From a virus, in the IMG/VR virus record IMGVR_UViG_3300045974_000102, positions 51,883 to 115,882 of that record: a DNA stretch of 64,000 bases, one strand, 5' to 3'. The notes under the pieces are model-generated. The model was given only the letters and a program-made list of their open reading frames with translations, did no database searches and was not told the origin of the DNA. Below, piece after piece: positions 53,097 through 64,000 of this stretch (position 1 is its first letter; every line of letters starts with the position of its first letter). The position numbers and the translations under genes were made by a program.

Positions 53097-56000
53097 ATGG
53101 CAAAAGAAAACAAGTTGCAACTGGCGTTCAAACCGCTGAACGCTAACGATGTGGGTATTATTACTACCCACGGAATTGCCTTTCAGACTGATGAGAAAGG
53201 CAGGGTGTTCAAGGCTGTTAGCAGCCTGTGGAAGGAAGAGCTTCCGATTCTTGAGTATGTGCCCGAGGTGAAACTCGAGGTGGCGTGTAATACGCCTATG
53301 TATGAAGCTTATCAGCGTGGCTTGCTCACGGGTGATAAGATCTCGTTCTATGCTCTTATGGGCAAGAACTCTGATGATAACTTCATCTTGTATAAACTCC
53401 TTATGGAGTCTCTGTTGTCTGTTGCTATCGGTCCTGATGGTAAGATAGAGGAGAGCAAGATGAAGTATCCACTCTACAATCCTAAGAAGAAGCACGGGTA
53501 TGTGTGCTGTGGATCTCGTCAGGCCATGATCAATATGTTTGGCTCTGATGTTCTTGGTGCTAGTGATAATCCGTTAAAGGTATTTCCACTGGTATCTGGT
53601 AACTCTGCATTCGTTTATGATGCTGAGACTACTGAGGAGTGGAATGGGCATGCACCTAGTATGCTTAAGGTGCTCATTACTGCTGAAGAGTATCTTCATG
53701 AGCATCCTGTTGCTCCTGGTTGCACCATGTTCCATGATGGTTGTATTCACTGGAAGGTGGGCTTTAAGATTAAGAAGTGGAGTCAGAGGGATACTGATAA
53801 CTGGTTTAGTGTGTTTGGCACACAATCCAGGACTATTATACCTGCTCTTGGTAAGTTCAAGGGTAATAGTGATTCTACTCTTGCATTTGAGACTGCAGTG
53901 CGCTGTGGCTACGAGCATCTGTATGAGCAGGTGGATGGAGTCGCTAGTATCTCTGTACTCAAGAGCTGGCCTCAGGACTGGAAGCCTGGTCAGATCGTTG
54001 AGATACCTATGAACAATTTCCGTATTGTTCAGGCTAAGGTATCTGACGGCAATAGTTCTATTGGTGGACAGGCTAGTGCTAGGCTGGACTTTAAGTCCAC
54101 TGAGGCCTTGTTGCGTGAGCATGGTGCTCATGAGCGTGCTAAGATACTCCGTGATGCTATTAGGGGTAAAGCTAGTGCTTATCAGCATATTTTAAAGGCT
54201 GATAAAGACAATACACTGGGTGATGCTGTTAAAGAATACATCCAGTATCTTGCCTTTGCATCTGATGATGGCCAGGGTGACTGGCAGTGTCCGATGTATG
54301 AGAGTGCATGGAATCATGCTATGGCACGTATGTACTCTTATTATTTCCGGAATGTTATCAAATGTCCTACAGCTAAGGTATCTCTGTATGTTCAGGTAGA
54401 TCCTAAGCTGGATAAGGCTGAAGAGAAGCATTTCGATGAGACTGGTGAGCGTGTCAACTTTGTTAAGTGGCCGCGTATCAGGAAGATTCGGTCTATGCTT
54501 AATCAGCACCGGTTCCAGAACGTAGGGCGTAACCCTATGGTTGGTCCTGGTAATGCTCAACAGGTTATACATCTGTTGGATGATAAGGGTGCTCCTGTGT
54601 GGAATCCTACTACAGATACTATTTATGTATCTGCACGTATGCTCTACTCTATGTTTGGAGATGAGGACGGCGATGCCGTCATCATGATTCCTTCTAACAA
54701 TGTAGCATTCCCTGTAGTGCGTAGGCCTGCAGGTGCTAAGAAGAGCTTTGAGTCTAAGTATGTTCAACCTACTGTGCTCAGAGACATGGATCCGTGGGAT
54801 ATTGTTGATAAGCTCATGGATGTTACTTACATGACTGTTCAGGCAGCCATGGATACTGGTTCTGCTGACTTGATCAGTCGCCTTGTTGTAATTACTTATA
54901 AACTCATTCAGCAGCCTGTAAGTGTGTTAACTCTTCTGGAGATGGCTGAGTTCTGTGAACTTCAGATCCAGAAGATGAAAAGGAAGACTGGTAAGACTGC
55001 ACAGTCTGATGTTGGTGCTGATGCGAACCTTCGTGTTCGTGATGCATTTATTAAGAAGTTCTGGAAGAAGGGCAAGCTCAACCAGGGCACTTATGCACCT
55101 AAAGAGCATATCCTTCTTTGTAAGAATGCTGACCTTAAGGGTAATCCTAAAGAGAGCTCTGTGATGTCTCGTATTATCTTTAAGCTCGCTAATATGATTC
55201 CGTTCGATAGAACGGTGCCACATCATGTTGTGTGGGATGTTTTGCAGGGCGTTAAGCCCTCTATGGAGCATGCTGCTTCTGATCGTATTCAGAAGTTCTT
55301 TGCAGCACGCTGGAATGCTCTTGTGCCATACATCAATTCTGGTGGATGGACTTATGTGGTGCCTAGTGTGCCCACTGAAGAGCATAAGCTTTGGGCTGCT
55401 AAGAAGCATCTGCTCAACAAGAATCTTGTTGGTATGTCTGATACTGATATTATGGCTCTTGCTATTACGGAAGGCTTTGATGCTAGCACTTTGGTTGCAT
55501 CTCGTCGTCCTCGTATAGATGACGTTGAAGCTGCTATCCAGGCTAATGGTTTTACTCTCATGGATTATACCAATGAAGAGCTCAAGGATATGATGGATAC
55601 CTGGGTTCCATTTGAGTATCCTGGTGAGACTCGTGCTATTGAGCTTAACTATACCATTCCTTTGATTAAGGATGTGGCTAAGTCTATCGTTGAATACTAT
55701 AATCAGTATTCTAGTATAGCTAAGGACATTGAGGATAATTATTCTCGTAGGATTGCATTCTCTATGATTAAAGAGAATATCCGTGTCACTATAGCTAAGA
55801 ATGCACCTGTACCTCCTGAAGAGGGCTGGGTGCGTGATCTTTGGGGCATGACTCCTTTGGATTACTACTATCGTGCAGTTCTCTGCCGTATTGGTAGTCA
55901 GGGCTTTGGTCTTTGGACCAAGAAGCCTGATCTTGAGAGTTCTGTGCCTGTTGAGCATCAGAAGCTCAATGGTTCACGTGGTGGCTCTGCATTTTGGTAT

Positions 56001-56162
56001 ATGCCTGAGCAGTATCTTGTGGACTATGCACTTATGATGAATCCAGGTAATCCTTGGGCTGAGAAGGCCAAGCTGGAACTCATCGTGCTCAAGCGTAAGA
56101 GTCTTGAGGCTGAAGCTCGTCGTGGTGAGAATGACGACGACGAAGAGAACGTAAACTACTAA
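53097..56162 (+). CDS. Single-chain double-psi-barrel RNA polymerase (YonO/RdRP-like)
   Basis: Ordered motifs FHDGCI, TQSR..GKFKG, VGRNP, FGDEDGD (DxDGD catalytic), MKRKTG. Confidence 0.8.
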   Translation: MAKENKLQLAFKPLNANDVGIITTHGIAFQTDEKGRVFKAVSSLWKEELPILEYVPEVKLEVACNTPMYEAYQRGLLTGDKISFYALMGKNSDDNFILYKLLMESLLSVAIGPDGKIEESKMKYPLYNPKKKHGYVCCGSRQAMINMFGSDVLGASDNPLKVFPLVSGNSAFVYDAETTEEWNGHAPSMLKVLITAEEYLHEHPVAPGCTMFHDGCIHWKVGFKIKKWSQRDTDNWFSVFGTQSRTIIPALGKFKGNSDSTLAFETAVRCGYEHLYEQVDGVASISVLKSWPQDWKPGQIVEIPMNNFRIVQAKVSDGNSSIGGQASARLDFKSTEALLREHGAHERAKILRDAIRGKASAYQHILKADKDNTLGDAVKEYIQYLAFASDDGQGDWQCPMYESAWNHAMARMYSYYFRNVIKCPTAKVSLYVQVDPKLDKAEEKHFDETGERVNFVKWPRIRKIRSMLNQHRFQNVGRNPMVGPGNAQQVIHLLDDKGAPVWNPTTDTIYVSARMLYSMFGDEDGDAVIMIPSNNVAFPVVRRPAGAKKSFESKYVQPTVLRDMDPWDIVDKLMDVTYMTVQAAMDTGSADLISRLVVITYKLIQQPVSVLTLLEMAEFCELQIQKMKRKTGKTAQSDVGADANLRVRDAFIKKFWKKGKLNQGTYAPKEHILLCKNADLKGNPKESSVMSRIIFKLANMIPFDRTVPHHVVWDVLQGVKPSMEHAASDRIQKFFAARWNALVPYINSGGWTYVVPSVPTEEHKLWAAKKHLLNKNLVGMSDTDIMALAITEGFDASTLVASRRPRIDDVEAAIQANGFTLMDYTNEELKDMMDTWVPFEYPGETRAIELNYTIPLIKDVAKSIVEYYNQYSSIAKDIEDNYSRRIAFSMIKENIRVTIAKNAPVPPEEGWVRDLWGMTPLDYYYRAVLCRIGSQGFGLWTKKPDLESSVPVEHQKLNGSRGGSAFWYMPEQYLVDYALMMNPGNPWAEKAKLELIVLKRKSLEAEARRGENDDDEENVNY

Positions 56163-58278: not shown

Positions 58279-59826
58279 ATGGTATCTAAAGCTAATCTAT
58301 CTCAACACCAACGTCGTCTCATTTTAGACAATGTTGGTGAACTTCCAACTGATTTAATAGCTAAACTACCGAAAGGTCTAAGGAAAGATTATCTACACTT
58401 CTATCCTTATGGTTTTCATGCTTTACCTGATTCACTTGCATTAAGATATAAACTATGTCCTCAGTCTACCAAGATACTGAATGCTTTACAGCAATTACGT
58501 GATGCTTGGGAGTTAAGCAAATTTATTACAATAGACCAAGAGATGTCTTCTCTTATCTGTTCTTACAACAGTGATGAGGAGTTCAATGATTATATTGATT
58601 CTCTTGCTCCTCGTAAGATTACTCGTAAAGGTACTTCGGTACTTATTAAGTCTGATGTAATGTCTCTTATGAATTCTAATGAGTTCATAATTGCTTCTGA
58701 TGTTTCTAGTGTTCTTACTGCTGAGGTGGTTGAGCCTGTTGAGACTGATGTTGCTAGAGCTATTAGATCTGCACGTGAGGTTGCTGATACTATTGCTTTG
58801 TCTTCTCGTAAGGAAATTATTATTGTTCCTGAAACTTCACGAATATATACTTCTCCTGAAGTATTAAGAACTATTGGTGTCAATAGATTTAAATGTTGTT
58901 ATGGTAAGAAAGGATATCCGTCTGAGGTTGAGGCTTCCGATGCTATAGCACATCAGTATGATGTTGCTGTTCGGAAGGGAACTCCTTTGGATGTTGAGAT
59001 CTCTTCTTATCTGTGTCCGTATTGTAGTCTTTGGCATAAGGCTAAGTCTTCAACTGTTGATTGGTTTAAGCGGAACTTTGTTCTTAGTGTACCAACTGAT
59101 TTAAAAGAATATAAAGAGGAAATTGAGATGGCACGTGAAATCCAACGTAATACTGTACTATTATCCCTGCCAGGTAGATGTCTATATGCTATACATATGA
59201 AAGGACATCATGACCTTAAAGGTCTAAGCATCGGGGTTATACTACAAATGTTAAGACAAGGTCTTGCTGAATTTGAGGCTTATAATCCTGCTGAAGGTGT
59301 TTTATGGTTGGATAGACAAGGTAACCGTGCTATTACTCAAGCATATGAAAGAAACATTATGAACAACAGTATTGTTCTTAAAACAAATGCTGTTCCTCGT
59401 ATTCTTGAATTGTTTAATGATTGGAAAAATATTCAGAACAAGTCTTTAGATGTATGTGTAGATGAAACTGTCGAGACGGTTGATGAGCCTGTCGAGACTG
59501 TTGAACCTGAGCGTATCATCAAGTCCGATACTATTGTCAGGTGTAAACCTGCTGTAGTATCAGAGCACGAAACTGAACCAGTAATTACATTCTTTGGTCC
59601 GGTTACACCATATACACCTGTTGATGATAATCTTAAACCATCTGAATCTGATGCTCTTGACTTCTCAACTGTAACTGCTCAACTATTATCTAATGATATA
59701 GAAAAATGGAGAGAAAAATATGAGGCATGTCATAATGTCCTCATGGAGGTATGGACACATCTGGAAAATGGTAAATCTGGTGACTATGTGCATTGTCTAC
59801 TAGATATAAAACTACCATCATTGTAA
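58279..59826 (+). CDS. Multi-domain hypothetical protein with zinc-finger-like motif
   Basis: CCYGKKGY..EA..YLCPYCSLWH. Confidence 0.7.
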   Translation: MVSKANLSQHQRRLILDNVGELPTDLIAKLPKGLRKDYLHFYPYGFHALPDSLALRYKLCPQSTKILNALQQLRDAWELSKFITIDQEMSSLICSYNSDEEFNDYIDSLAPRKITRKGTSVLIKSDVMSLMNSNEFIIASDVSSVLTAEVVEPVETDVARAIRSAREVADTIALSSRKEIIIVPETSRIYTSPEVLRTIGVNRFKCCYGKKGYPSEVEASDAIAHQYDVAVRKGTPLDVEISSYLCPYCSLWHKAKSSTVDWFKRNFVLSVPTDLKEYKEEIEMAREIQRNTVLLSLPGRCLYAIHMKGHHDLKGLSIGVILQMLRQGLAEFEAYNPAEGVLWLDRQGNRAITQAYERNIMNNSIVLKTNAVPRILELFNDWKNIQNKSLDVCVDETVETVDEPVETVEPERIIKSDTIVRCKPAVVSEHETEPVITFFGPVTPYTPVDDNLKPSESDALDFSTVTAQLLSNDIEKWREKYEACHNVLMEVWTHLENGKSGDYVHCLLDIKLPSL

Positions 59827-60100: not shown

Positions 60101-60364
60101 ATGGGAAAGACTGTAAGACCTTTTTTCATTGTATATGTTATCTTTGTTGTTTGTTTAGCTTACTTCATACCTTTGGCTTATAAGGAAGGAGTTAAAGTAG
60201 GATATGCTGCTGGAACTTCTGAAATGCGAGCTAGAGAACGTAAGTGTCGTGAGATACTAACTAAAGCTTCCATATTATCTAATCATTCTACTATTACTCG
60301 TATGTTAAAGGATGGTCGACATGGAGGACAAAGAAAAGTTATACCAAGCAAAATTAAAAGCTGA
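60101..60364 (+). CDS. Single-TM protein
   Basis: AAGGAG RBS; hydrophobic N-terminus. Confidence 0.6.
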   Translation: MGKTVRPFFIVYVIFVVCLAYFIPLAYKEGVKVGYAAGTSEMRARERKCREILTKASILSNHSTITRMLKDGRHGGQRKVIPSKIKS

Positions 60365-60486
60365 AGCTGCTATTGTTAAATTAAGAGATAGCCTTGATGC
60401 TTTAGCTGCTGCAATGAAATCTATTAAACTTAAAGTTGATAAGGATAAAAAAGAATAGTGTCGTGCTATCAGTGAAGGAGGTGTGT

Positions 60487-61137
60487 ATGGAACGTATATT
60501 TAGACGTATCATCATGCTCCTCATTGCTGCATGGTGGTGGAGTTTCAGACGTAAAGTCAAAAAGTGGGCGAAATCCAACCGAATTCCTAAAGGAGAAAAT
60601 GGAATTATGAAAACAACACTGAAGATTAAAGGCGTCAATGTAGGCCTGCAATTCTGTGAAGGATTTGGGCCAGTGGCTGCTCGTATGTCATTTGACGAGC
60701 TCAAAGAAATTGCTCCGGCTAAAGATGCTCGCACAACTGTTACCGAGTTCAACTACGGTATCGACGAGTATGAACACGAGCTCGAGATGAGCGAACAGGA
60801 AACCACTGAAACCTATGGTTTCATCCGCGGAAACGACACTGAAATCCGTAAAGGTCTTAAATGGGCCTTCGAAGGCATTGGCAACTTTGTTGCTCCTGAG
60901 CTGAAGAAATGGAGTGACCTCGGCCTCAACCTCGCCACTGCTGCCAACTCTCCGGTTGACGACAAAATCGAAAATGCTGTCAGAGATGCTAAGCGTGTTT
61001 GGGAACGCGAAGCAGAAGACAAAGCATCCGATCTCCGTCGTGCTGAATTCGAACGTAAACAAGAAATCCGTCAAGCTGTTGATACCGCTGTTCTCGAAGC
61101 TCGCATGAAATGGGAAGCTTCCAGTGGTCATCAATAG
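60487..61137 (+). CDS. Hypothetical protein with two in-frame starts (60487 membrane-anchored; 60607 soluble)
   Basis: AAGGAGGTG before 60487, AAGGAG before 60607; C-terminal coiled coil. Confidence 0.65.
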   Translation: MERIFRRIIMLLIAAWWWSFRRKVKKWAKSNRIPKGENGIMKTTLKIKGVNVGLQFCEGFGPVAARMSFDELKEIAPAKDARTTVTEFNYGIDEYEHELEMSEQETTETYGFIRGNDTEIRKGLKWAFEGIGNFVAPELKKWSDLGLNLATAANSPVDDKIENAVRDAKRVWEREAEDKASDLRRAEFERKQEIRQAVDTAVLEARMKWEASSGHQ

Positions 61138-61144
61138 CTAACAT

Positions 61145-61330
61145 CTATTCCCTTGTGACACTTGAAGGGTAGCCATTGCGCAATGGCGAAGTATTAACTT
61201 CCTAAGGGCCACCGGTACTTACCGCCCCGCACTTGCCTCTAGCAGGCAGGGATAGTTGATGCACAAGCAGAAGGTTAGGGCAGCCCGGTAGGCCATCGGT
61301 GACTCCGAATTAAAGCCCTTTATCCTTAAC
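61145..61330 (+). ncRNA. Candidate structured non-coding element
   Basis: GC-rich intergenic stretch with several stems incl. GCCATTGCGCAATGGC palindrome. Confidence 0.35.
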
Positions 61331-61360
61331 TTCCACTCATTAACCCTAAAGGAGTAACAC

Positions 61361-61456
61361 GTGAAAATAATCTTTGGCTTAATAGTAATCTATTTTATTT
61401 TACTTGTTACAAACGTTATAACTGCTTCACTTTCAAAAAAACCCAACTTTGTATAA
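61361..61456 (+). CDS. 31-aa single-TM peptide (not in track)
   Basis: AAGGAG RBS, GTG; MKIIFGLIVIYFILLVTNV.. Confidence 0.55.
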   Translation: MKIIFGLIVIYFILLVTNVITASLSKKPNFV

Positions 61457-61493
61457 AACGCTTTAGCGTTTACATAAGATTAGGAGGTGCTAT

Positions 61494-61601
61494 ATGATAC
61501 CTTTACGAACAATAGTATTGTTCATCTGCATGATTGTTCATGCTTTACTAAAACCTCAAATTGATAAATGGAACAAAATATGTGAAAGGAGTAGAAAATG
61601 A
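61494..61601 (+). CDS. 35-aa single-TM peptide (not in track)
   Basis: AGGAGGT RBS; ATGA overlap with next. Confidence 0.55.
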   Translation: MIPLRTIVLFICMIVHALLKPQIDKWNKICERSRK

Positions 61602-61792
61602 TATCTTGGGTAATAGCAGCTGTATTATGTTTACAACTGTTTCTCTGGTCTGCATGGACAATACTTATATTGTTCCATTGGGACGAGAAAATCTCAGGTA
61701 ACAAAGAAAAAGAATTAAAAGCTAGTTATATCAATAAATGCTTTATCTTTACATTCGTCGTTTGTTTCTGCGCTTGGCTAGCTATCATATGA
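61598..61792 (+). CDS. Small two-TM protein
   Basis: AAGGAG RBS. Confidence 0.6.
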   Translation: MISWVIAAVLCLQLFLWSAWTILILFHWDEKISGNKEKELKASYINKCFIFTFVVCFCAWLAII

Positions 61793-61803
61793 AAGGACTT
61801 ATC

Positions 61804-61962
61804 GTGCAAATAATTCTCTGGATTATACTAACATACTTTATCGTTACTTGTCTTGCTGCAGCAGTAAGCTGGTGGAAAACATTAACCATTATCAAAAATC
61901 ATAACGAGTGGGTAAAAACTCAATATGATGATAGTCCTTACACTGTAGTAATCAATATCTAA
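61804..61962 (+). CDS. Small single-TM protein
   Basis: AAGGA RBS, GTG start (MQIILW). Confidence 0.55.
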   Translation: MQIILWIILTYFIVTCLAAAVSWWKTLTIIKNHNEWVKTQYDDSPYTVVINI

Positions 61963-61976
61963 AGGAGGTGCTATCA

Positions 61977-62240
61977 ATGAAGAAAACAATTAATACTAAA
62001 CCCGCTTGGTGGGAGAAGTTCATTAACTTTATCTCTGCTATTTGGCAGTGGATTACAACAAGATTCAAGTCTATGAGACAAGATGTTCGTGAGTTTTATG
62101 AGGACTTACGCTGCGTGTTCAAAAAGCATGGTTGGATTAGCAACACAACCATGATAGCTGGTGCTCTATTCTTCGCTCACTTACTATTTGACTTCATACT
62201 GTTAGGCTTTGCTGCTGTAGGCGTAGCCTCATTGATTTAA
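61977..62240 (+). CDS. Small protein with C-terminal TM segment
   Basis: AAGGAGGT RBS. Confidence 0.6.
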   Translation: MKKTINTKPAWWEKFINFISAIWQWITTRFKSMRQDVREFYEDLRCVFKKHGWISNTTMIAGALFFAHLLFDFILLGFAAVGVASLI

Positions 62241-62250
62241 AGGAGATGTT

Positions 62251-62445
62251 ATGGATCGTCCACACTACAAGCCTTTCATTAGGAATAGCCTCTGGAATCA
62301 AGAGCAGCATAACAAATTCGCTATGGCTGCACTCACTGGTATTCTTGCTCGTCCTATAACAAATCCTTTTACAAGTATGAATGAAGTAGTAAAACTAGCA
62401 GCAAACTACGCCGATCTTATGATGATCGAAATGGACAAAGAATAA
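62251..62445 (+). CDS. Small phage protein (FAMAALTGIL..A..YAD.M motif)
   Basis: AAGGAG RBS; motif common in phage hypotheticals. Confidence 0.65.
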   Translation: MDRPHYKPFIRNSLWNQEQHNKFAMAALTGILARPITNPFTSMNEVVKLAANYADLMMIEMDKE

Positions 62446-62468
62446 CTCTAACAAGAAAGGAGAATGGC

Positions 62469-62774
62469 ATGCATCCTACTCTCAGAGAGGAGTTCTGGAT
62501 GATTCCTATGCCAGAGGCAAACCTTATGGTCATTCCATTAGTTGGCGGACTGTTCCTGTTTATCTGTGCTTGCTGGTGGATAGCGAATCGCTTTAAAGGC
62601 AAGCCGTATATCTATAGTCGAACTACTGATGCTCAACTCGACGAAAAGATGGAACAACTTCATAAGTCACGCAGAGAGCTTCAAGAGCTTTATCAACAGT
62701 CTGGTAATTGGACTCAATTGTCCTACAGACTTAAACATGGCGAGGATATCGCCAAATTGCTTAAATCCCTGTAA
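62469..62774 (+). CDS. Single-TM protein with coiled coil
   Basis: AAGGAG RBS. Confidence 0.6.
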   Translation: MHPTLREEFWMIPMPEANLMVIPLVGGLFLFICACWWIANRFKGKPYIYSRTTDAQLDEKMEQLHKSRRELQELYQQSGNWTQLSYRLKHGEDIAKLLKSL

Positions 62775-62788
62775 GGGAGGTGCTATCA

Positions 62789-62989
62789 GTGAAGATAATC
62801 CGCTTCATCTTTTGGTGCTTTGTCATGATGCTATTAGTAAGTATACCATTGTCTGTAGTGAGCTGGCTAGGTAGATCTTGGTATATTCTTGTCATAGGAA
62901 TTCCAGTAATGCTTGGACTTGTAGCATCTTACAAGATATTCGGATACCTATGGCGAATTGATAAACCAAATTTCAGAGGAGGTGCATGA
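62789..62989 (+). CDS. Small two-TM protein
   Basis: GGAGGT RBS, GTG start. Confidence 0.6.
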   Translation: MKIIRFIFWCFVMMLLVSIPLSVVSWLGRSWYILVIGIPVMLGLVASYKIFGYLWRIDKPNFRGGA

Positions 62990-62990
62990 C

Positions 62991-63278
62991 ATGAACCAAT
63001 TGATGCCAGGTTTGGTTCTTGGTTGCATGATTTACGTAGGGTGGATGGGATTCTACTTCTTATATGTGCCTAAGCGCATTAAGAAAAGTATTGAGTCCTC
63101 AATGCCCTTACTGTTTATCATGGATGTCATGTTGACTGTCCTAGGGACTATTGGCATGTCAGCAGCGAGCGGGACTCTCACTGCGGCCTTTGGTGGGGCT
63201 ACTATAGCCTGCCTTGGCACCATTACCTCACTTGTCCTGAGAGGCAAGCGAAAGTTGTATAACCTTTGTTCAAACTAA
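62991..63278 (+). CDS. Three-TM membrane protein
   Basis: GGAGGT RBS. Confidence 0.6.
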   Translation: MNQLMPGLVLGCMIYVGWMGFYFLYVPKRIKKSIESSMPLLFIMDVMLTVLGTIGMSAASGTLTAAFGGATIACLGTITSLVLRGKRKLYNLCSN

Positions 63279-63288
63279 GGAGTCGTCT

Positions 63289-63387
63289 ATGGATTTCTGG
63301 AATTCAAAAGAAGGACAATTTTCAGGACTTGAGATTACTATAATTCTGGTCTTTATTGCACTTATTGCTTATAAGATATTCAACTGA
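63289..63387 (+). CDS. 32-aa single-TM peptide (not in track)
   Basis: AAGGAG RBS; MDFWNSKEGQFSGLEITIILVFIALIAYKIFN*. Confidence 0.6.
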   Translation: MDFWNSKEGQFSGLEITIILVFIALIAYKIFN

Positions 63388-63413
63388 ATACATCTCTCAG
63401 AGAGGAGATTAAC

Positions 63414-63500
63414 ATGAAAGGCTTTACACTCATTGAGCTTGTCGTTAACATTGCTACAACTGGCTTTGTTGCTGCATGTCTCTACATACTCTTCACTTAA
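63414..63500 (+). CDS. 28-aa minimal type IV prepilin-like peptide (not in track)
   Basis: GAGGAG RBS; MKG|FTLIELVVNIATTGFVAACLYILFT*. Confidence 0.75.
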   Translation: MKGFTLIELVVNIATTGFVAACLYILFT

Positions 63501-63511
63501 AGGAGCATATC

Positions 63512-63724
63512 ATGTTTATATTCGAAGGTTTCATAGTTCTCTTCGTCCTTGCCTTTGCATTTTGCTGGGCCATGGGTTGGTCAAGTTCATTGAGCGTTAT
63601 TGCTATCGGTACGCTCATGCTCATCCTCATCAGTGCTATCAGGGAGTTGGCACTCTACTTCATATCGAAAGGAGAAACAGAAAATGGCATGGAAACTGAG
63701 GAACCCGTTCGTGCGGGAGCCTGA
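63512..63724 (+). CDS. Small two-TM protein
   Basis: AAGGAG RBS before MFIFEG. Confidence 0.6.
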   Translation: MFIFEGFIVLFVLAFAFCWAMGWSSSLSVIAIGTLMLILISAIRELALYFISKGETENGMETEEPVRAGA

Positions 63725-63971
63725 GACCGCTAAGGCACAGCCATCAGCGAAGTCTCTCGAAGCGCTTCAGGAAAAGGCAGAGAACAGTATCCGTCTGTTC
63801 ATCACCGCCTCTGCTGTAGCAATGGGTCATCTGAACAACTTCACGGAAGCCATGAAAGGCATCGAAAAAGCCAAGGCAAAACAGCCTTGGTTTGGACACC
63901 GTTGGATGCAGAACTATCGTGAACAGAAGTATGCTCGCAAACTCCGTAAATATACGGTAGTCGCATCCTGA
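63684..63971 (+). CDS. Hypothetical basic protein
   Basis: AAGGAG RBS before MAWKLRNP. Confidence 0.6.
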   Translation: MAWKLRNPFVREPETAKAQPSAKSLEALQEKAENSIRLFITASAVAMGHLNNFTEAMKGIEKAKAKQPWFGHRWMQNYREQKYARKLRKYTVVAS

Positions 63972-64000
63972 CATCTGGCAAGGCGGAGATGGGTCTCTTA

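Follow-up and report, generated by a model that had tools for sequence, protein, structure and literature searches.

A 28-codon phage gene for a headless peptide with a prepilin-type N-terminus

The 64,000-nt stretch of DNA analysed here (hereafter the window) contains, close to its 3′ end, a 28-codon gene whose product joins a prepilin-type signal to a single membrane helix and then stops. Judged from its sequence, this peptide appears to belong to the widespread and already known class of truncated pilin-like proteins of virulent phages, of which it is a minimal and unusually divergent example. Our best explanation, taken as a whole, is a translated phage gene for an N-in inner-membrane peptide that would derive from, or mimic, a pilin N-terminus and act on host type IV filaments; we hold the case for and against this complete reading to be about equal. 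The gene and its signals are as follows.

63414..63500, plus strand: headless prepilin-like gene, 28 codons with a TAA stop; product MKGFTLIELVVNIATTGFVAACLYILFT, 28 aa
63402..63407, plus strand: Shine-Dalgarno sequence GAGGAG, 6 nt ahead of the ATG, read directly
63414..63422, plus strand: leader M-K-G, with a predicted prepilin-peptidase cut after G3
63423..63497, plus strand: predicted mature peptide F1 to T25, 25 residues, scored with a positional PSSM; one predicted transmembrane (TM) segment
63498-63500, plus strand: TAA stop, overlapping the AAGGAG ribosome-binding site (RBS) of the following gene
63500..63505, plus strand: AAGGAG RBS of the following gene (ATG at 63512), overlapping the stop of the ORF at 63414..63500

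The initial annotation had described this ORF with its GAGGAG RBS, its MKG leader cut after the glycine and the overlap of its stop with the next RBS, and all of these were read in the sequence where it had placed them. The 28-codon ORF is a real gene, as seen from the spacing of its RBS, its coupled stop, its packing among its neighbours and an identical second assembly. Omitting it would leave a 124-nt gap in an otherwise tightly packed array, every gene of which has AAGGA, GAGGA or GGAGG 5-10 nt ahead of its start in an RBS scan. Translational coupling between the 28-codon ORF and the gene at 63512..63724 is likely. The second assembly is a Logan re-assembly of a pond metagenome run, probably built from the same data as the IMG/VR record, in which positions 62400-64000 lie in one contig with no indel and an identical ORF; the single substitution relative to the window over this interval is at 63632, outside the ORF. 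Contig sequences can show neither variants nor expression. Among public sequencing runs only one was found to hold the sequence, this pond metagenome, which is probably its source, and no RNA run was among them. The Logan contig covering 62400-64000 is 26,323 nt long and extends about 2 kb beyond the end of the IMG/VR record (the window ends at 64000, where the record's contig ends). With this overhang, more of the pond phage could be recoverable from the same run.

The N-terminus of the peptide is of the prepilin type. The MKG leader also heads more than 100 full-length bacterial pilins, which makes it a natural prepilin leader, and G↓FTLIE (the arrow marking the cut) represents a genuine prepilin-type (class III) N-terminus. 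In mature numbering, the peptide keeps F1, E5, A11, G14, A17, A18 and F24, and it stops at T25 with nothing past the membrane helix and no head domain; the translation thus bore out an earlier reading that F1, E5, A11, G14, A17 and A18 are kept and the head is absent. The sole basic residue of the peptide is K2, at the N-terminal end of the TM helix, which favours an N-in orientation. Atypical residues are found at N9, T12, T13 and C19, and position 22 is Ile instead of Pro.

Profile searches gave a split result. The initial annotation had suggested matching the peptide to PF07963 and TIGR02532; TIGR02532 scored 18.1 bits, above the cutoff of 16.3, whereas PF07963 scored 19.7 bits (18.6 in a genome-wide scan), under its cutoff of 21.2. 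The 28-aa peptide is nevertheless the sole PF07963 match in the 115,882-bp contig. The best match among PHROG families was phrog_13280 (E = 5.6e-4), with the remaining families at 0.02-0.05, and all PHROG alignments, that to phrog_3433 ('pilin') included, span residues 1-23 only. A profile search gave no Flp family match, and the Flp/Tad processing motif G↓xxxxEY is absent, as E5 is present but followed by L6 and not Y6. The peptide lacks the α1-C helix and globular β-sheet head of type IV pilins proper (PF00114, GspG, ComGC). It also lacks Pro22 (T4a) and the canonical hydrophobic core, having Ile22 and negative scores at N9, T12, T13 and C19. With the head domain missing, the product is not, strictly speaking, a type IV pilin.

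We assessed the helix separately from the motif, using a position matrix for mature residues 6-25 built from 101 full-length bacterial pilins that start with MKGFTLIE; the matrix is independent of the motif itself. The scores were:

window peptide: -1.75 bits
shuffles of the window peptide: -21 +/- 7.8 bits; p = 0.007
real pilins: median 17.2 bits
Aeh1 stub: 18.8 bits
PX29 stub: 24.6 bits

On the same matrix, the window peptide outscores 98.7% of the hydrophobic 20-mers of the contig. The helix is therefore pilin-type yet divergent, with N9, T12, T13 and C19 and without P22. These figures also bear on the alternative that both the ORF and its motif arose by chance. The frame is very short, PF07963 stays under its cutoff and about 250,000 windows were read, so that M[KR]GFTLIE (5e-6 per window) would be expected about 1.2 times under a model of independent residues with the six-frame residue frequencies of the contig. 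With the hydrophobic tail added, the expectation falls to about 0.015 per 250,000 windows, the positional p value is 0.007, and the RBS and packing fit a gene; we regard a chance origin as very improbable.

Searches for relatives of the phage region itself returned almost nothing. A blastn search of the region against GenBank phages found no relatives, locus searches with the neighbouring 515-aa and 95-aa proteins found no related loci, and profile-guided locus searches of metagenome and viral contigs found no related region. A protein database search with the 515-aa protein (58279-59826) recovered only itself, and one with the 41-aa open frame was empty, a weak test given that ORFs below 30 aa are rarely called. 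The peptide patterns MKGFTLIELVV (in viral contigs) and GFTLIELVVN (in metagenome contigs), searched at the DNA level, yielded no relative of the region. Among 5.8 billion proteins, the 1021-aa protein (53097-56162) had just one relative, P0003, with 40% identity, on a 3.2-kb Logan contig that offers no usable gene context. GenBank MT838545.1, matched by the peptide search, was considered as a phage relative and rejected as a bacterial fragment. This record ('UNVERIFIED Bacteriophage sp.', human faecal) has ORFs that by eye resemble ribosomal proteins L13 and S9, and carries three full-length pilin paralogues of 167-186 aa. One of them is inverted, so the pilin locus could be subject to phase variation. 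The phage lineage is essentially unsampled and the 28-codon ORF is a singleton; it is without relatives, so support from conservation and selection comes from the class and not from this copy.

The class was found by its N-terminus. The initial annotation had pointed to small phage ORFs as a place to look for headless pilins, and examples of 27-29 aa were indeed present in Aeromonas phages. A scan of IMG/VR for MKGFTLIE gave 25 loci, with 27-29-aa ORFs of the TM type in four large T4-like Aeromonas phage genomes; of the other ORFs, one has 37 aa and most have 49-87 aa. The median length of MKGFTLIE ORFs is 67 aa in viral contigs versus 163 aa in bacteria (115 complete bacterial ORFs). Only two of the 115 bacterial ORFs are shorter than 100 aa, neither being hydrophobic after the motif, and none of the 115 is a TM-type ORF below 100 aa. 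A tblastn search with the Aeh1 peptide detected pilin-like N-termini in 174 GenBank phage records (hosts Synechococcus, 49; Pseudomonas, 46; Vibrio, 32; Aeromonas, 27; Acinetobacter, 8; and others). Across these groups the phage proteins range from about 28 to 127 aa, the forms of 107-127 aa being those of Acibel004 and cyanophage ACG-2014f. PHROGs holds six families of such proteins of 59-187 aa (phrog_13280, 10597, 11263, 27437, 11596 and 3433, the last called 'pilin').

The shortest forms were compared in detail. In Aeromonas phages Aeh1, Ah1, PX29, phiAS5 and phiWae14 the RBS, start and stop of the 27-29-aa stubs are retained to within +/- 1 codon. Codon differences among them are about equally often synonymous and non-synonymous, and replacements are conservative (I/L/V), a pattern that fits purifying selection. 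At mature residues 24-26 both these stubs and the window peptide terminate in [IL]F(x), and they thus stop at the aromatic residue with which the membrane portion of pilin α1-N ends. Over residues 6-25 the window peptide shares 10 identities with the phiAS5 and phiWae14 stubs, compared with at most 8 with sampled full-length pilins; this is suggestive of the two headless stubs being its closest counterparts, with homology not proven. The earlier concern that homologues would be full-length, and this copy a truncation of them, was thereby set aside: the nearest look-alikes are 27-29-aa phage ORFs, and full-length forms are the rule only in bacteria. On these comparisons the design recurs in unrelated phages and appears to be under selection in Aeromonas phages.

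Several of these genes have escaped annotation or are annotated unusually. The 28-aa Aeh1ORF040c carries the GenBank note 'similar to N-terminal sequence of bacterial secretion protein pilin'. In phiAS5 (HM452126/NC_014636) the 27-aa stub at 126211-126291 is unannotated, and in phiWae14 (LC778249) no CDS covers the 27-aa stub at 132205-132285, the preceding CDS overlapping its first 4 nt. ORFs below 30 codons are missed by standard gene callers, and the class is therefore undercounted. Distinct from the headless stubs is a recurrent family of 57-90-aa mini-pilins in which the pilin helix is followed by a short tail with a conserved Cys pair, for example ...RC(I/V)xGYKF...G.GV.C, at the following IMG/VR loci:

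Cys-pair mini-pilins: L005, L006, L007, L011, L021, L022, L023, L169, L199, L200, L209, L215, L243, L267

Aeromonas phage AhFM11 (ON042478.1, locus L274; CDS 167-625) encodes a 152-aa protein with G↓FTLIE at residue ~79, and from there onward it resembles the 72-aa mini-pilin of locus L025. Either its start is mis-called or it has an unusual N-terminal extension of 78 residues.

The stop shared by the shortest forms is relevant to a second alternative, that the ORF is a decaying, non-functional remnant, namely the 5′ end left over from a host pilin gene that the phage had acquired. Capture of pilin genes by phages does occur, as the 107-127-aa proteins of Acibel004 and ACG-2014f illustrate, and both the divergent helix and the absence of relatives showing selection would fit decay. 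There is, however, no trace of a head domain downstream, where the two-TM gene that follows is independent and has an RBS of its own; the Shine-Dalgarno sequence is strong and the packing tight; and the stop falls at mature residues 24-26, as it does in the conserved Aeromonas-phage genes. We consider a remnant unlikely.

The window is the final 64 kb of an IMG/VR record with a CheckV completeness of 56%. Structural genes occupy 1-46751, and the terminase, portal and sheath genes, which are on the minus strand, indicate that the source is a phage, apparently an orphan myovirus. Its terminase is less than 30% identical to that of any isolate, including jumbo phages of Acinetobacter, Moorella and Bacillus. 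No tRNA genes were found in the 64-kb window. The ORF lies in the non-structural arm, in the following setting.

60101..63971, plus strand: small-gene array in the non-structural arm, ~18 co-directional genes of 28-216 aa, mostly small
63289..63387, plus strand: upstream single-TM peptide, 32 aa, class III/Flp motif absent
63512..63724, plus strand: downstream two-TM protein, 70 aa, in a different frame with its own AAGGAG and ATG, no family match above noise

Eleven genes of the array encode 1-3 TM helices, and Pfam and family searches of the array neighbours gave no matches. Within it, 61361-63724 is a tight stretch of small genes, mostly for 1-3-TM peptides of 28-101 aa, with strong Shine-Dalgarno sequences and no family match. 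The gene at 62789-62989 shows a faint match to Phage_holin_2 (PF23778, E = 0.035). Three other ways of reading the locus were tried and rejected: a frameshift fusion with the downstream ORF is ruled out by that ORF's own AAGGAG and ATG and its two-TM product; a split pilin of the Geobacter kind, its head encoded by an adjacent gene, by neighbours that have no family match; and the 32-aa upstream peptide as a second class III/Flp substrate, by its lack of the motif. Neither a prepilin peptidase nor any other pilus gene was found in the 115,882-bp contig (~56% of the genome), so processing would require the host enzyme. The initial annotation had also read the peptide as pointing to a piliated host, but this proved uninformative, since the prepilin peptidase is close to universal, being present in 12 of 14 control genomes.

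No pilin feature is seen in about a dozen of the neighbouring TM peptides, so pili need not be the target of the entire array. This raises the alternative that the product is a small membrane peptide with another target, its pilin-like N-terminus serving as an insertion or anchor module that is perhaps processed. Together with the neighbouring TM peptides it might then act in lysis timing, in a block of DNA injection or on another envelope machine; T4 Imm, for example, blocks DNA injection. The array of ~18 small, mostly TM genes, its neighbours without pilin features and the one with the faint holin-like match all fit such a role, as does a helix that is weakly pilin-like past E5 and whose polar N9, T12 and T13 could drive other helix-helix contacts. 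A plain anchor has, on the other hand, no need of G-1, F1 and E5 in exact register, a charged E5 is costly for a plain TM anchor, and the motif together with truncation at about residue 25 recurs across unrelated phages. We judge another target to be doubtful, if credible.

Comparison with named systems places the window peptide among the truncated phage pilins, and the ORF has their features: a tailed, apparently virulent phage, a position outside the structural module and a missing head. Like the window ORF, the Aeromonas-phage stubs consist of MKG↓FTLIEL followed by ~19 hydrophobic residues, have their own RBS and belong to large virulent myoviruses, where they are placed among small early-region ORFs. 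They differ in having canonical pilin helices (19-25 bits versus -1.75 for the window peptide) and in lying between nrdB and nrdD, whereas the window ORF is in an array of TM peptides in an unrelated lineage; homology between them is not demonstrable at such length. The KVP40-type mini-pilins (phrog_13280, 61-82 aa, annotated PF00114/PulG-like) likewise lie in a non-structural region of large myoviruses, and in KVP40-like phages this 61-82-aa version is syntenic, adjoining td. Unlike the window peptide, they have a conserved C-terminal tail with a Cys motif. Natural pilins that are mostly N-terminal helix do exist in bacteria, namely Geobacter PilA-N (61 aa, with PilA-C as partner) and the Flp/Tad pilins. 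PilA-N depends on a head partner from a separate gene, the Flp pilins have the motif G↓xxxxEY, and both are in mature form more than twice as long as the window peptide. In contrast to PilA-N, the window ORF has no head-partner gene beside it.

Truncated pilins of virulent phages have been considered in recent work. Sztanko et al. (Cell Rep 2026; PMC12952977) reported that a prophage FimU (P-FimU) is built into the pili of P. aeruginosa and blocks tip-binding phages, and described PilA-like proteins in four groups of virulent phages (PMC12952977). For the ~60-residue truncated phage PilA (P-PilA) they proposed either incorporation without phage-binding sites or inhibition of assembly (PMC12952977). 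The P-PilA of virulent Pseudomonas phages is probably phrog_10597, e.g. vB_PaeM_G1 orf026 / KPP10 gp132. It resembles the window peptide as a virulent-phage gene with only the N-terminal segment of a pilin and with the same proposed action; it differs in its ~30 hydrophilic residues after the helix, where the window peptide ends with the membrane helix, and the match between them is restricted to the motif (E = 0.041). The best functional analogue is PfsE of Pf phages, a 30-residue inner-membrane peptide that blocks type IV pili (T4P) through binding to PilC and gives superinfection exclusion (PMC8764522). Like the window peptide it is phage-encoded, has ~30 residues and is N-in in the inner membrane, but it is not pilin-like, and the YAWGW aromatic cluster (YxWGW) with which it binds PilC is absent from the window peptide. 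Full pilins are also encoded by the archaeal provirus SNJ2; they rely on the machinery of the host and are incorporated into functional pili (PMC12426801). Both P-FimU and the SNJ2 pilins are virus-encoded members of the type IV pilin family that use host machinery, as proposed for the window peptide, but they are full-length, are found in working pili and come from temperate elements. Our literature search found no paper on a class of 27-29-aa headless phage pilins.

In type IV pili, it is the head domain that forms the surface of the filament and, outside the core, makes the contacts between subunits. With only 25 residues, a subunit would leave the hydrophobic core exposed, which makes silent incorporation unlikely and weighs against a further alternative, that the peptide is a substituting subunit which joins host filaments without stopping them and alters their surface or dynamics, as P-FimU does. 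P-FimU and the SNJ2 pilins do enter functional pili (PMC12952977; PMC12426801), and incorporation is one of the two options offered by Sztanko et al. for truncated P-PilA (PMC12952977). For the window peptide we think substitution quite improbable.

The reading that we prefer, interference with host type IV filaments, has its precedents in PfsE, P-FimU and the P-PilA proposal. In this scheme, the 28-residue peptide would derive from, or mimic, the N-terminus of a pilin or pseudopilin, comprising the MKG↓F signal and the α1-N helix. It would be expressed from the host-takeover arm and inserted like a prepilin; the host prepilin peptidase would recognise it via G-1, F1 and E5 and probably process it. 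The headless product would then act as a dominant negative on type IV pili, type II secretion or competence pseudopili. That the peptidase recognises or processes the peptide, and that it acts in this dominant-negative way, we regard as an even call. Four routes can be envisaged. The peptide might compete for the prepilin peptidase; it might dock through E5 and its N-terminus on host pilins or on the assembly platform and poison assembly; it might sequester host pilins; or it might, by mimicry, signal to a sensor such as PilS that the pool of pilin in the membrane is full. The fourth route rests on pilin-PilS sensing, reportedly the subject of work by Kilmury & Burrows in 2016. The polar face formed by N9, T12 and T13 might, speculatively, strengthen helix-helix binding. 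The benefit to the phage would be the exclusion of pilus-dependent competitor phages, or a shutdown of envelope functions; exclusion of competitors would be the payoff, rather than loss of the phage's own receptor. The decoy mechanism is plausible but unproven. More tentatively, peptides that consist of α1-N only (the window ORF and the Aeromonas-phage stubs) may represent a minimal inhibitor that works in trans on type IV filament biogenesis and evolved more than once, in which a 25-residue N-methylated helix would suffice and the N9/T12/T13 face would lock onto a TM partner in the host; we think this possible but lean against it.

Part of this was already known: a 28-aa phage ORF annotated as pilin-like is in the Aeh1 record, and the decoy or inhibitor idea is in print for the ~60-residue versions (PMC12952977). 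The window copy alone adds little, being a singleton of an idea already published for longer forms. At 28 codons, such stubs fall below the usual floor of 30 codons and most gene callers miss them. If the stubs disable type IV filaments, they would be a common and overlooked tool by which phages act on a major receptor, a secretion route and a DNA-uptake route. In that case, the shortest stubs would place everything required for engaging the machinery within the first 25 residues of a pilin. Should the minimal-inhibitor reading hold, it would define the minimal determinants of pilin recognition, and the peptides would offer a natural scaffold with which pili, type II secretion or competence might be blocked.
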